From Clostridia bacterium (GTDB taxonomy: Bacteria; Bacillota; Clostridia; Oscillospirales; CAG-272), in the NCBI GenBank assembly GCA_017621755.1, contig JAGASL010000006.1, positions 26,727 through 90,726 of the forward strand: a stretch of DNA of 64,000 bases. Reading direction: 5' to 3'. The stretch's first letter is position 1, and each line of letters starts with the position of its first letter. The notes beneath the pieces were generated by a model that was not told where the DNA came from, ran no database searches, and worked only from the letters and a program-made list of their open reading frames with translations. Shown here one piece after another: positions 14,672-18,122 of the stretch. A program made the position numbers and the translations under genes.

Positions 14672-15601
14672 ATGGAAAGAATACCAGCCCCACGCCTAAA
14701 TGGCGAATACGTTACCATATATCATCCGCAAGGTGACGTTTATCAAGGTCGCGAGACCACACATTTCACCCCCGGCACACATTACGAAACGTGGGTGGCC
14801 AACGATTTCAGCCTGATCAAGCATCACGATTCCTATCATATGATAGGCATCACCCACCCGAAGCCCCCGCAATTTATTGATGAATTCAACCCGGGCGAGG
14901 GTGACTGCCATGAGGCCGAGGAGGTCCTCTTTCACGCAACGGCAAAGGGCAACACGTTTGCCGACCTGCTAAAGGACGGTGCCTTTACCGACCAAGCCAA
15001 GCTGCTCTACCCGCAGGAGCGGCCAGACGAGGTTCCCTTCATTCATGCACCGCACCTCACAAAAGCGAAAAACGGTCGTATTCGTATGATCTACGGCCCC
15101 AAATATATCCGCCTGGCAGAAACGGACGATTTTGTGAATTTTGAGCGCCGCACGCTATTTATTGACGGTGATACGGCGCGCGACCCGTTCCTGTTTGAGG
15201 AGGATGGCGTATTTACGGTGATCTATGCCGTAGAAAACCGCGTGGATTACCGCCAATCGACCGACCTGGTTCATTTTACCGAGGCACGCACGCTGCAAAT
15301 CAACCCCTTCGGCAACGAGGATGGCATTCTGGCTGCATCAGAATCCCCCTTCCTCTTTAAGCATGACGGCTTTTATTACCTGATGTGGGCGATCTATGAC
15401 GGCCGCCTTGGCGTTTATGACCACCGCACCTTTATCTTTGGCGCCAGAACGCTTGAGGGGCTGGCCAACAGTGCCCCGCTTACCATGCTGCCCGCCCACG
15501 CAGGCGAGATCTACGAGGACGAAAGCGGCATCTATCTCCTCTCAGCCTACCATCCGCAAAACGGTATCAGCGCGGTAGAGCTGAAATTTGAGTATCGATA
15601 A
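14672..15601 (+). CDS. Five-bladed beta-propeller glycoside hydrolase (GH32/GH43/GH68 clan-like), cytoplasmic
   Basis: WVANDF, HAPH, ARDPFLF and ASESPFLF motifs resemble the NDP/RDP/E catalytic triad. No signal peptide. AGGAGG RBS. Confidence 0.7.
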   Translation: MERIPAPRLNGEYVTIYHPQGDVYQGRETTHFTPGTHYETWVANDFSLIKHHDSYHMIGITHPKPPQFIDEFNPGEGDCHEAEEVLFHATAKGNTFADLLKDGAFTDQAKLLYPQERPDEVPFIHAPHLTKAKNGRIRMIYGPKYIRLAETDDFVNFERRTLFIDGDTARDPFLFEEDGVFTVIYAVENRVDYRQSTDLVHFTEARTLQINPFGNEDGILAASESPFLFKHDGFYYLMWAIYDGRLGVYDHRTFIFGARTLEGLANSAPLTMLPAHAGEIYEDESGIYLLSAYHPQNGISAVELKFEYR

Positions 15602-15660
15602 AAAAGAAAAAACGCCCAAGGGGTGCCTTCCATAAAGCAGGTTTACCTGCCGGAAATATC

Positions 15661-15737
15661 GTGGGGCGGGGGCTTGCTCCCGCCGAAAACAAACGATATA
15701 TGCCAAGAAAGCGGCGGGAGATGAACCCCCGCCCTAC
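15661..15737. repeat. GTAG/GTGG-type REP doublet (REPIN-like)
   Basis: GTGGGGCGGGGGCTTGCTCCCGCCG (15661-15685) and an inverted GTAGGGCGGGGGTTCATCTCCCGCCG (15712-15737), each internally palindromic, separated by 26 nt. Confidence 0.7.
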
Positions 15738-15740
15738 AAC

Positions 15741-15775
15741 AAAAGGAGTACGAGCAATTTGTTCGTACTCCTTTT
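15741..15775. terminator. Bidirectional terminator hairpin inside the cassette
   Basis: AAAAGGAGTACGAGC / GTTCGTACTCCTTTT. Confidence 0.7.
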
Positions 15776-15837
15776 CACACGCCTTGCCTGCAAGGTATAG
15801 CGTGTTATACTTTTTGTATACTGTCGGGCGATAATGA

Positions 15838-15958
15838 GCTCCCTTGTGTAAAGGGAGGTGGCACGGCTTGCCGTGACGGAGGGATTGTAAAAGCTAAAAG
15901 TTCTCGTATGACAATCCCTCAGCCGCCTTCGGTGTCAGCTCCCTTTACACAAGGGAGC
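15838..15958. repeat. 121-bp palindromic MITE/REP-like element
   Basis: Perfect 20-bp terminal IR GCTCCCTTGTGTAAAGGGAG / CTCCCTTTACACAAGGGAGC, inner IR GAGGGATTGT / ACAATCCCTC, plus small side hairpins. Confidence 0.75.
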
Positions 15959-16040
15959 CTTTCTTTATGTTCATCTATAACTTGTCAATTTTCCTGACAA
16001 GCACTGCTTTTGTGGACACAAATGCAACCAAGAGATCGTG

Positions 16041-17084
16041 TTATGGTACAATTAACGCCTTAAAACCCTCTGTTTCTCTGATAGGATCAAAGCAACGGTT
16101 GTTATTCAAGCAGCGAATGAAATCATCAACATCGGTTATATCGGAATCGGTAACAGGATGCTCTTGTTCGACAAGTGAAAATAGCGGAGCTGTGAATCTT
16201 ATCTTTCTTTGGTGATTTATTTTTGTCATTTCTTCCGCATGGTATCTCGCTTTTTTCAGTTCTTCCAACACGCGATCATATTGATGCACTCTGCAAAAAT
16301 GAAAGGCTTTGCTGATGCAATTATATTGCAAGGTGTTATGGTAGTATTGAAAATTGCCGTCGGGGAACATAATATTCAGTATTTTTTCAATGGCATCAAA
16401 TGCTTCTATGGAGGTTTGACCAAATTTTAATTGAAACAGAAAATCATACAGCTTTGTGTTTGTTAGGTGCTGACAATGTTTTTTCTTTTCTTCGCCATCC
16501 AAGCACCAACAAAGCAGGTCGTCTCTCTTCTCCTCATTCTCCTCTAATAAAGCATATTTCTTTGCTTCCTCTTTCTTATGATTAGAACTCAGCGAAAGAA
16601 CGATGCCGTGCAATGCTTTCTCGTATAAATTTGAATCCTTGGTGTTATCCAAAACCAATTTATAATGTTTGGCAGAGCTTTCAAGCAAACGCGCATATTC
16701 ACTCTCATCCGCTATTGGCATGGCAACATAATATTCTGCCGATGCCAACCATTCCACATATTCCATATTTCCGGGATATTCGGCAACGGCACGCACGGCA
16801 ATTTGATAATTCTTTTCTTTATCGTCATGTTCCCAATATTTGTGGAATGCTTTGTCAAATTCTTCTTTCCGCAAATCTTTTTGATATGTTTCCATTCCAA
16901 GCAGATAATCAGTGGTTACGTTGAACAAATTGGCAAGCGGAGGCAATAGAGAAATGTCAGGCATAGCAACATCCGTTTCCCAACGGCTAACCGCTTGCGG
17001 TGAGATAGAAAGAAGCTCGGCGAGGTTTTCCTGTGTCATATTTGCTTCTCGGCGAAGCAATTTTATCGTTTGTCCAAATGACAT
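16041..17084 (-). CDS. XRE-family helix-turn-helix regulator with a helical (TPR-like) C-terminal domain
   Basis: IKLLRREANMTQENLAELLSISPQAVSRWET..AMPDISLLP.LA.LFNVTTDYLLG (HTH_3). AGGAG RBS. AT-rich codon usage. Confidence 0.9.
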   Translation of the reverse strand: MSFGQTIKLLRREANMTQENLAELLSISPQAVSRWETDVAMPDISLLPPLANLFNVTTDYLLGMETYQKDLRKEEFDKAFHKYWEHDDKEKNYQIAVRAVAEYPGNMEYVEWLASAEYYVAMPIADESEYARLLESSAKHYKLVLDNTKDSNLYEKALHGIVLSLSSNHKKEEAKKYALLEENEEKRDDLLCWCLDGEEKKKHCQHLTNTKLYDFLFQLKFGQTSIEAFDAIEKILNIMFPDGNFQYYHNTLQYNCISKAFHFCRVHQYDRVLEELKKARYHAEEMTKINHQRKIRFTAPLFSLVEQEHPVTDSDITDVDDFIRCLNNNRCFDPIRETEGFKALIVP

Positions 17085-17129
17085 ATATATGGTTCTCCTA
17101 ACTTTGTTACTTGACCGGTCTGTGATTAT

Positions 17130-17179
17130 ATTATAGCCGTTTTTGATTATTTGTCCACCTCTCGCTGGTTGAGAGGGTG
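17130..17179 (-). promoter_or_regulatory. Promoter and candidate auto-operator of the XRE gene
   Basis: Minus strand TGGACA-N16-TATAAT. Imperfect IR CACCTCTC...GAGAGGGTG (17156-17179) abuts the -35. Confidence 0.45.
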
Positions 17180-17209
17180 TAAATTGAAAATTGAGTAAAG
17201 TATATAAAT

Positions 17210-17241
17210 TTGGCGTACCTGCTTTATCGCAGGTACGCCAA
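17210..17241. terminator. 13-bp hairpin at the right end of the cassette (terminator for apbC and/or subterminal palindrome)
   Basis: TTGGCGTACCTGC-TTTATC-GCAGGTACGCCAA. Confidence 0.6.
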
Positions 17242-17261
17242 GGGTGTTTTTTCTTTTTATT

Positions 17262-18122
17262 TTACTTCGGCAGCTTTTCGCCGTTGGTAGCGCGCTCAAC
17301 AGCATCGGCTACCGGCTCGAAGTATTCTGCCTCCATCAGCTCGATCACGCCCTTGTCGCAAAGCGAGGAAAGCTCGGGGTCGATCGGCAGCTTACCAAGC
17401 ACGGGAATATGCCGTGCGGCGGCAAATTCATCAATACCGCTATCGCCAAACAGCTTGTGCTCCTTGCCGCAATCGGGGCAACGGAAGTAGCTCATATTCT
17501 CTACGATGCCGAGAATACGGATGCCCATCAGATTGGCCATATTGACAGCCTTATCCACGATCATGGATACCAGCTGCTGCGGCGATGTAACGATCACGAT
17601 ACCGTCAAGCGGCAGGCTCTGGAATACCGTCAGCGGTACGTCACCCGTTCCGGGAGGCATATCTACGAACATGTAGTCTACCTCGTTCCAGCAGGTATCC
17701 GTCCAGAACTGCTTGACCATGCCGGCGATCACCGGGCCGCGCCAAACAACGGGCTTGCTCTCTTCATCCAGCAGCAGGTTGGTAGATACTACCTCAATGC
17801 CGGTCTTGGTCTGTGCCGGGAACATGCCCATCTCCGAGCCCTCCAGCTGCACGCCGCGCAGGCCAAAGGCACGCGGGATCGAGGGGCCGGTAATATCGGC
17901 ATCCAGCACCGCCGTCTTATAGCCACGGCGATTCATCAACGTAGCCAGCGCACAGGTAACGGTGGATTTACCAACGCCGCCCTTACCGCTGACAACGCCG
18001 ATCACACGCTTGACGTTGCTGGCCGCATTTTGCGGCGCAAGCAGATCGGTATTCTTCTGCCCCTTCTCGCGCGAAGCGCAATTACTGGAGCAGGTGCTAC
18101 AATTATGTGTACACTCACTCAT
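17262..18122 (-). CDS. Mrp/NBP35 (ApbC) Fe-S cluster carrier ATPase
   Basis: N-terminal CTHNCSTCSSNC, SGKGGVGKST, DADITGPS, WRGP, DMPPGTGD and ENMSYF.CPDCG motifs. Confidence 0.95.
   Translation of the reverse strand: MSECTHNCSTCSSNCASREKGQKNTDLLAPQNAASNVKRVIGVVSGKGGVGKSTVTCALATLMNRRGYKTAVLDADITGPSIPRAFGLRGVQLEGSEMGMFPAQTKTGIEVVSTNLLLDEESKPVVWRGPVIAGMVKQFWTDTCWNEVDYMFVDMPPGTGDVPLTVFQSLPLDGIVIVTSPQQLVSMIVDKAVNMANLMGIRILGIVENMSYFRCPDCGKEHKLFGDSGIDEFAAARHIPVLGKLPIDPELSSLCDKGVIELMEAEYFEPVADAVERATNGEKLPK

Follow-up and report, generated by a model that had tools for sequence, protein, structure and literature searches.

A family of recombinase-less cassettes, probably mobile, set in the loops of terminator hairpins in gut Clostridia

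The intergenic region considered here lies within a 64,000-nt window, the whole stretch of DNA analysed, which corresponds to positions 26,727-90,726 of contig JAGASL010000006.1 from a Clostridia bacterium (assembly GCA_017621755.1; 2.38 Mb, 96% complete). Two convergent host genes flank the region: an open reading frame (ORF) for a GH43-like glycoside hydrolase (GH; 14672..15601, + strand), recognised by a weak match to PF04616 (E = 1.9e-4, under the curated cut-off), and a gene for an apbC/Mrp-type P-loop NTPase (17262..18122, - strand; PF10609, E = 2.2e-90). Between them is a cassette of 1622 bp (15620-17241), in which the sole long ORF (16041-17084, - strand) encodes no recombinase domain. 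A sequence-only reading of the window had proposed that this is a recombinase-less cassette mobilised in trans, with intrinsic terminators as landing sites. These propositions survive the analysis reported below, although mobilisation in trans is something that we infer.

The cassette splits a host terminator in two. The stop codon of the GH43-like gene abuts the left half (15601..15619), which consists of an A-tract, the stem arm ACGCCC and the target dinucleotide AA (15618-15619) and is complementary to 17242-17258; the right half (17242..17258) consists of the stem arm GGGTGT and a T-tract. In-silico deletion of 15618-17239 yields a continuous A-tract/stem/loop/stem/T-tract structure with a predicted folding energy of -19.2 kcal/mol, bearing out the proposal that removal of 1622 bp restores a bidirectional terminator. 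Joining 17239 to 15618, as in a circularised cassette, gives the second inverted repeat that had been foreseen, namely a quasi-palindrome centred on the same AA, with perfect outer 11-nt arms and inner 12-nt arms matching at 8/12 positions. The left end (LE; 15620..15650, + strand) is a degenerate 11-6-11 quasi-palindrome, G-GGGTGCCTTC-CATAAA-GCAGGTTTACC, accompanied by a small hairpin, GCAGGTTTACCTGC, and the right end (RE; 17210..17241, + strand) is a perfect palindrome, TTGGCGTACCTGC-TTTATC-GCAGGTACGCCAA, which folds at -26 kcal/mol and ends in AA. The RE hairpin (~17209-17242) has a 13-bp stem that includes the terminal AA (z -6.8 on the + strand and -9.6 on the - strand). Recomputation reproduced the hand count of 35/42 matches between 15601-15642 and the reverse complement of 17217-17258, of which ~23 nt belong to the element, and a repeat search independently returned the same pair (42 nt, 83%); LE and RE thus compared form terminal inverted repeats matching at ~19/23 nt (alignment count). 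The direct repeat CCAAGGG, reported at 15616 and 17238, has no + strand occurrence in the window beyond these two. The cargo is AT-richer than its surroundings, as had been noticed, with a G+C content of 0.35-0.44 across 16100-17200 versus 0.52-0.63 in the flanking genes.

The same ends recur elsewhere in the source genome. There are two occurrences of the end motif ATAAAGCAGGT in the window, compared with 0.01 expected from shuffled sequences, and 16 in the genome, 11 of these 16 within element ends. BLAST and nhmmer recovered 10 LE copies at E <= 5e-10, with paired RE hairpins, and there are four further 'type B' copies as well as two contigs that begin within a copy; the source genome holds at least 14 copies of the family. 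The copies are dispersed rather than arrayed, with one flank the reverse complement of the other, as in C48 (CTATAAAAAGAAGGAGAGAC / GTCTCTCCTTCTTTTTATAG) and C13 (GTAATAAAAAAGGAGCC / GGCTCCTTTTTTATTAC) and likewise in C65 and C1. Three to four copies are 99-100% identical across 140 nt, and hence the family appears to have been active, or homogenised, in this genome in recent times. The search suggested in the sequence-only reading, for the end motifs at other terminators with other cargo, was successful here and in other genomes: the gene-bearing copies (1.0-2.1 kb) include a second XRE-type helix-turn-helix (HTH)/TPR gene (C48), a gene for a 541-aa sigma-like protein (C65) and one for a membrane protein of 238 aa with no Pfam match (C1), and the source genome also has gene-less copies of 360-460 bp.

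A scan for LE with an exact pattern, using one genome per species, identified at least 115 stretches in other genomes. Nearly all of the records are titled as metagenome-assembled genomes (MAGs) of gut Clostridia, Oscillospiraceae or Eubacteriales, from human, ruminant and bird hosts. The cassette DNA of the window is 82-85% identical to cassettes located at unrelated sites in five other species, with dissimilar flanks: similarity spans 15615/15618-15656 and 15738-17241..17252 and is nil beyond. Contigs from three further studies are nearly identical to 16068-17241, with the GH flank uncovered and the apbC side barely covered, and those of two of these studies (X7 and X10) depart from the window exactly after 17241, into other flanks composed of a stem and a T-tract. 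Among 41 relatives, LE is present in 10, and this patchy distribution, together with the low G+C content, supports a foreign origin of the cassette DNA. Orthologues of apbC in relatives (59-73% identity) are all without the element, and at 7/11 of their loci, none with the element, the gene ends directly in a terminator hairpin.

The preference for terminators is a property of the family rather than of the window copy alone. We defined 37 LE-RE pairs by their ends alone (the window copy plus four in the source genome and 32 in others, with one locus counted twice) and rejoined their flanks in silico. The median folding energy of the rejoined flanks is -17.2 kcal/mol, as opposed to -7.5 kcal/mol for 1330 mismatched pairings; 28 of the 37 pairs fold at -13 kcal/mol or below (7% of the mismatched pairings), and 22 have at least 11/12 complementary flank bases (1.9% of the mismatched pairings). 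Consistently, 27/103 LE loci contained the 14-nt left flank in reverse-complement form downstream, mostly directly after RE (...CCTGCTTTATCGCAGGTACGCCAA), as opposed to 3/103 loci in the upstream control. Target stems differ from copy to copy, and the rebuilt loops (GAAA, GCAA, AAAC, TCAA, CAACG and others) place AA within ~1 nt of the dyad centre. AA precedes the element in 34/37 end-defined copies, and among the 115 unique LE flanks listed, A occupies position -3 in 94% and position -2 in 96%; upstream of these positions are ~8 nt of variable, C-rich sequence and an A-tract (-12..-18). None of these 115 flanks has TT before LE; relative to the ends, the strand that bears AA is always the same. 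Only the AA is therefore common to the family, and the longer CCAAGGG repeat of the window copy, although real, is mostly a coincidence of the element ends with the host stem. The presence of AA at both junctions, at the RE end partly imposed by the search pattern, is what either a duplication or a shared crossover core would leave. The window copy thus belongs to a family whose members have precise boundaries, occupy unrelated loci in different species, split terminators and carry no recombinase gene. Very probably, 15620-17241 represents a member of a family of non-autonomous mobile cassettes that is dispersed in gut Clostridia and resides in terminator hairpin loops, the movement being presumably catalysed in trans. 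The two ends of each member, both 28-bp quasi-palindromes of 11-6-11 form, are in inverted orientation and enclose, in most cases, a single cargo gene together with modular non-coding sequence, in which a two-way terminator, a promoter-like site and optional repeat modules are found.

Several further features lie between the two ends of the window copy. An optional GC-rich module of nested stems (15657..15737, + strand; 15650-15745 folds at -47.3 kcal/mol, z -5.9) corresponds to a gap in the alignments to the five orthologous cassettes and is also missing from many metagenome copies, with metagenome contig joints skipping 15644-15740. Being cleanly present or absent between copies, this nested double stem behaves like a further insertable module. 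A comparison with Rfam returned no real family in 15400-17400, the GC-rich module included. This module is followed by an element-borne two-way terminator hairpin (AAAAGGAGTACGA...TCGTACTCCTTTT; 15741..15775; -22.5 kcal/mol on the + strand and -19.2 on the - strand, z -8.1), which was detected as an inverted repeat and is kept in other copies of the family. Taken with the host T-tract, the RE hairpin is predicted to be a terminator on the + strand, with a poorer score on the - strand. The hairpins near each end, pointed out in the sequence-only reading, probably still stop transcription from the host genes. A promoter-like site facing the cargo, TTGCCT-16-TATACT with a TG (15784..15811, + strand; 9/12 matches plus TG), is a putative promoter; its counterparts in copies C1 and C65 have the cargo gene on their downstream side. 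Finally, inverted-repeat detection revealed a nested 120-bp unit (15838..15960), the arms of which (GGCTCCCTTGTGTAAAGGGAG... / ...CTCCCTTTACRCAAGGGAG) also frame a gene for a small DUF559 (Vsr-like) nuclease in other genomes (L232:1400-1900 and L068). Judging from these arms, the unit derives from a separate, hairpin-framed mini-element for a DUF559 nuclease, of which it lacks the gene; summed over contigs, its depth in gut metagenomes is very high.

The cargo gene (16041..17084, - strand) encodes a 347-aa regulator with an XRE HTH and a TPR domain (PF01381, HTH_3/XRE, E = 2.3e-13) and has a predicted promoter of its own, TGGACA-16-TATAAT (17128..17157, - strand; 11/12 matches). The AF2 model of the protein (pLDDT 91.7) is all-helical past the HTH, and its best structural matches in the PDB are PlcR (E = 1.7e-5), ComR, PrgX and Rgg2. 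As modelled, the cargo is therefore a regulator of RRNPP-like, quorum-sensor-like architecture: it shares with the RRNPP regulators (PlcR, ComR, PrgX, Rgg) an N-terminal XRE HTH and a TPR-like helical domain, at low TM-scores (0.17-0.35) and 12-17% sequence identity. No cognate peptide gene was identified beside the cargo gene, no systematic search for small ORFs having been made. Orthologues 85-86% identical to the cargo protein are found within elements of the five other species, and the protein family comprises 559 clusters at E <= 1e-10. By manual count, 57 of the 120 clusters listed are without a contig >3 kb, which is what assembly breaks at the repeated ends would produce.

Across the family, ~57 loci yielded 77 ORFs, 28 of which form one XRE-HTH/TPR cluster. 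In other genomes the cargo further includes AraC, extracytoplasmic function (ECF) sigma, GNAT, methyltransferase, LytTR, WYL and DUF559 proteins as well as unknowns, some of the cargo-region ORFs from unbounded loci being host genes. Of all parts of the cargo proteins, which otherwise diverge, the HTH is conserved best. Pfam searches with the window ORFs and with 69 cargo-region ORFs of other copies detected neither a recombinase nor a transposase inside the cassettes, in agreement with the earlier statement that the cassette encodes neither. Overall, the cargo varies and consists for the most part of regulators.

The copies also vary in structure. In the 'type B' copies (C42:13200-13400, C48:70497-70846, C52:2400-2760 and C64:780-1130), the AA-left end has the perfect palindrome and the right end the degenerate one, the opposite of the window copy. 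Two RE loops are flipped (GATAGA versus TCTATC) between otherwise similar copies. A solo end palindrome, GCGTACCTGC-N6-GCAGGTACGC, without AA, occupies the tip of a terminator hairpin at C62:3905-3960 (L128/L131), between an XRE-like ORF and a conserved gene for an Xer-like recombinase, and may represent either a minimal element or a footprint. At C11:1-1865 (L212), on a 1.9-kb contig, an LE-side element fragment lies ~450 bp from a gene for a phage terminase large subunit, and may represent an element copy in a prophage. Three gene-less copies, C13:17700-18260, C52:2380-2790 and C67:3960-4720 (L257, L258 and L260), are filled with heptamer-hairpin arrays (GTGATAT / GTGAAGT), which score 46-49 bits against the Gut-1 RNA (RF01706), below its gathering score of 50 (E ~1e-7). 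In view of these scores, Gut-1 may be a module of the cassette family; it is given as 'human gut only' in Weinberg 2010 (PMC2864571).

The results that weigh against this reading concern the paired copies, the window locus and the enzyme that would move the cassettes. Nine of the 37 end-defined copies rebuild poor hairpins, although mis-pairing of ends, or tandem or nested copies (e.g., L040), probably account for some of these, and the regular expression used for RE partly forced the terminal A. The empty site anticipated at orthologous GH-apbC loci was not found in relatives, where only apbC was matched (68-74% at the DNA level) and the GH gene was not; a search with the GH protein against JGI metagenome contigs likewise produced no matches. 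No contig joint skips 15618-17240 in four runs (X4, X7, X9 and X10), in which gaps in cover prove nothing. The predicted circle junction, sought in metagenome contigs as a 21-nt motif, gave a single chance match within a coding region, with no element around it. As for possible vectors, there were no matches in plasmids, one 49-nt match in phages and no LE in IMG/VR.

With regard to the enzyme, the source genome has no matches for Y1_Tnp (PF01797), TnpB (PF07282), rve (PF00665), DDE_Tnp_1 (PF01609), Rep_trans (PF02486) or DUF559 (PF04480). Nor are there any for Y2_Tnp (PF04986), a blank that proves little because the control genomes were blank too. IS110 (PF01548) gave only a sub-threshold match in the source genome and was above the cut-off in 4 of 30 element-bearing genomes. 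The source genome does contain one large serine recombinase (C8), two tyrosine recombinases and one relaxase, of which none is flanked by ends and none tracks the element. Serine recombinases (PF00239), found in 20/30 element-bearing genomes, do not follow it either, with 7/10 LE-positive and 19/31 LE-negative relatives encoding one, and the large serine recombinase of C8 shows no co-occurrence with LE. The sequence-only reading had suggested looking for end motifs next to a recombinase or a Y1 transposase, and none lies near any fetched serine, Y1, IS110 or integrase gene. No autonomous copy with the same ends was encountered in the ~57 loci with >= 700 nt past LE, a sample that a master element >2 kb long, or one located elsewhere, could escape, and the 11 contigs under 5 kb examined in the source genome (of 13 under 6 kb) encode no transposases.

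One of the two tyrosine recombinases is the product of the conserved, single-copy Xer-like gene on C62, found in 35/41 genomes. The palindrome that follows this gene was considered as its cognate site and rejected, being present in only 1/30 orthologous loci, that of the source genome. A tyrosine integrase is also encoded, along with small XRE ORFs, in an AT-rich island at a contig end (C57:52500-54500; L130). Homologues of the integrase are 95% identical in one other species and 50-78% identical in 11 more of the 30 element-bearing genomes; no end motifs occur near the homologues in these 12/30 genomes, and the island is a separate horizontally moving element.

Among the mechanisms that might account for these observations, we weakly prefer conservative recombination at the AA core through an excised circle, a tentative choice whose probability we place short of even; it ranks ahead of, in descending order, an HUH nuclease, a DDE transposase and host or accessory factors. 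Under conservative recombination, the cassette would be excised as a circle, the RE-AA-LE junction of which has the arm-2-arm geometry of a small serine-recombinase crossover site, and this junction would recombine with a terminator holding the same central AA. The window copy would have landed in this way between the convergent GH and apbC genes, bringing an XRE-TPR regulator with its own promoter. Such a reaction would account for the AA being both invariant and of fixed polarity. Comparable sites are known from serine systems, such as the hix sites of Hin (12-2-12, with a central AA), IS607, and Tn4451 with its recombinase TnpX (GA). Like these sites and transposons, the cassettes combine an arm-2-arm quasi-palindrome with a non-palindromic central dinucleotide, present in both donor and target, which comes to lie at both element ends and sets the polarity. 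The attB x attP-like geometry proposed from the sequence thus holds in that quasi-palindromic arms surround an identical central AA in the donor junction and in the terminators. Unlike in the serine systems, however, no serine recombinase is linked to the cassettes or co-distributed with them, and the arms of the target are poorly conserved.

A nuclease of the HUH type (IS200/IS605-, IS91- or Rep-like), acting in trans by single-strand 'peel and paste', is in our estimation rather unlikely. It would read the folded end hairpins and cut 3' of the AA at the foot of RE and 3' of the AA in the loop, leaving no true duplication. Such an enzyme would suit hairpin ends and a hairpin-loop target no less than the preferred mechanism does, RE being a perfect hairpin with AA as its final bases, and it would also suit the strict polarity. 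Moreover, the left flank NCAA/NGAA and the RE end CCAA resemble the logic of IS608, with its target and right-end tetranucleotides, and Y1_Tnp is present in 13-14/30 element-bearing genomes. These Y1 genes, however, belong to ordinary IS200-like units with unrelated ends or are weak matches without end motifs, and the source genome encodes no Y1_Tnp, Y2_Tnp or Rep_trans despite its near-identical copies, which disfavours the IS200/IS605 alternative offered alongside the serine proposal. The element also has true terminal inverted repeats, which IS200/IS605 elements are not known to have.

Less likely still is a DDE transposase that prefers palindromes and generates a 2-bp duplication, as in IS30, by cut-and-paste or copy-out, the cassettes being derivatives, of the mobile insertion cassette (MIC) or MITE (miniature inverted-repeat transposable element) kind, of an insertion sequence (IS) that was not assembled. 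The terminal inverted repeats (~19/23 nt) and the 2-nt direct repeat at the junctions would fit; palindromic targets and 2-3-bp duplications are traits of the IS30 family, IS1630 targets terminators, and multi-copy IS are often lost from MAGs. Yet the source genome has no rve or DDE_Tnp_1, and the ~57 loci with sufficient sequence past LE contain no transposase. Furthermore, a symmetric reaction should use both orientations with respect to AA/TT, whereas all 115 LE flanks listed have AA, never TT, beside LE, which argues against it.

Host or accessory factors appear improbable as the main agents. In this scenario, an Xer-like tyrosine recombinase would act on the folded ends, or a small DUF559 (Vsr-like) nuclease would be involved, and the XRE HTH may bind the ends. 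The ends do share the 11-6-11 geometry of a tyrosine-recombinase core site, but the element boundaries are outside the 6-bp spacers, not inside them, and the palindrome beside the C62 recombinase is not shared by the orthologous loci. The HTH being the best-conserved part of the cargo is in keeping with a role at the ends. DUF559 is the only enzyme family enriched with the element: it was detected in 23/30 element-bearing genomes, as small, strong ORFs in 19/30, and in 6/10 LE-positive versus 4/31 LE-negative relatives, the related genomes not being independent. Against this, the source genome is without DUF559, end-like motifs occur near only 2/30 DUF559 loci, and the co-occurrence is confounded because the DUF559 units are themselves nested passengers. 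That the region is not mobile at all, having evolved locally with a duplicated terminator and an XRE gene gained by ordinary homologous recombination, would agree with the failure to see either an empty site or a circle for the window locus, but is very improbable given that these ends, and the cassette itself, are found at unrelated loci of many species, with similarity stopping at the ends.

In kind, the cassettes are a MIC/MITE-like system that targets palindromes as do the IS that hunt repetitive extragenic palindromic (REP) sequences; they differ from both in having no matching autonomous IS, a terminator-loop target and a polar AA. With MICs and MITEs, of which MIC231 of Bacillus cereus is an example of the former, they have in common inverted-repeat ends around non-transposase cargo, the lack of an internal transposase, presumed mobilisation in trans, and short gene-less forms beside gene-bearing ones. 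The terminal inverted repeats are kept in the 37 paired copies, and no copy examined has an internal transposase. MICs, a further case being the mic element carrying qnrD as presented in PMC3913671, share their ends with known IS, whereas no such IS was found for the cassettes, which are further set apart by the terminator-loop target, the fixed-polarity AA, the palindromic ends and the strong bias towards regulators. Insertion into extragenic palindromes is common to the cassettes, REP-targeting IS (as outlined in PMC1525189), ISPpu9 and IS30/IS1630, but these IS encode their own enzyme and the cassettes do not. The IS110 family, exemplified by the modular circles and core-dinucleotide recombination summarised for ISPpu9 in PMC12288879, resembles the cassettes in having a conserved core dinucleotide at both junctions, and also features circular intermediates and non-coding modules that hitch-hike on a transposase. 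Nevertheless, the cassettes do not qualify as IS110/IS1111 elements, with their DEDD transposase and bridge-RNA-defined target: matches are sub-threshold in the source genome and reach the cut-off in 4/30 genomes elsewhere, and a single guide of the bridge-RNA type could not specify the targets, since their sequences vary.

Hairpin ends, strand polarity, short conserved cleavage bases and no obvious need for a duplication are likewise found in IS200/IS605 derivatives, that is, palindrome-associated transposable elements (PATEs), and in REP/RAYT systems. Unlike PATEs, the cassettes have terminal hairpins that form true inverted repeats, a cleavage point at the foot of the hairpin rather than nucleotides away, and no Y1 gene in the source genome. 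Integron cassettes (attC) are similar in being promoter-poor, single-gene units with a folded recombination site, but the family described here has no IntI, no arrays and no R''/R' GTTRRRY cores. Group IIC introns also prefer terminator hairpins; the cassettes, by contrast, insert in the loop rather than 3' of the hairpin and contain no reverse transcriptase or ribozyme. Our literature search, in which subscription journals were outside coverage, found no description of terminator-loop cassettes, and the family is apparently undescribed so far.

A broader interpretation, which we regard as possible but doubtful, is that the family represents an unrecognised system of cassette mobility, in which a structure-reading enzyme outside the catalogued transposase families, or else a host enzyme, inserts palindrome-ended cassettes at the AA of terminator loops as safe harbours, chiefly shuttling regulators (RRNPP-type, AraC, sigma) between species, with Gut-1 and other gut repeats as modules. 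That an 'AA in a hairpin tip' would be recognised suggests a recombinase activity yet to be discovered, and such an enzyme could serve as a tool for neutral-site insertion. Several of the orphan repeats in gut metagenomes, Gut-1 among them, could also be accounted for by the system. If the family does move as proposed here, intrinsic terminators would provide horizontally acquired genes with a low-cost landing pad of general use in a dominant gut lineage. Given the cargo bias, whole regulators, quorum-sensor-like receptors among them, would then be traded between species as plug-in units equipped with their own promoter and terminators.

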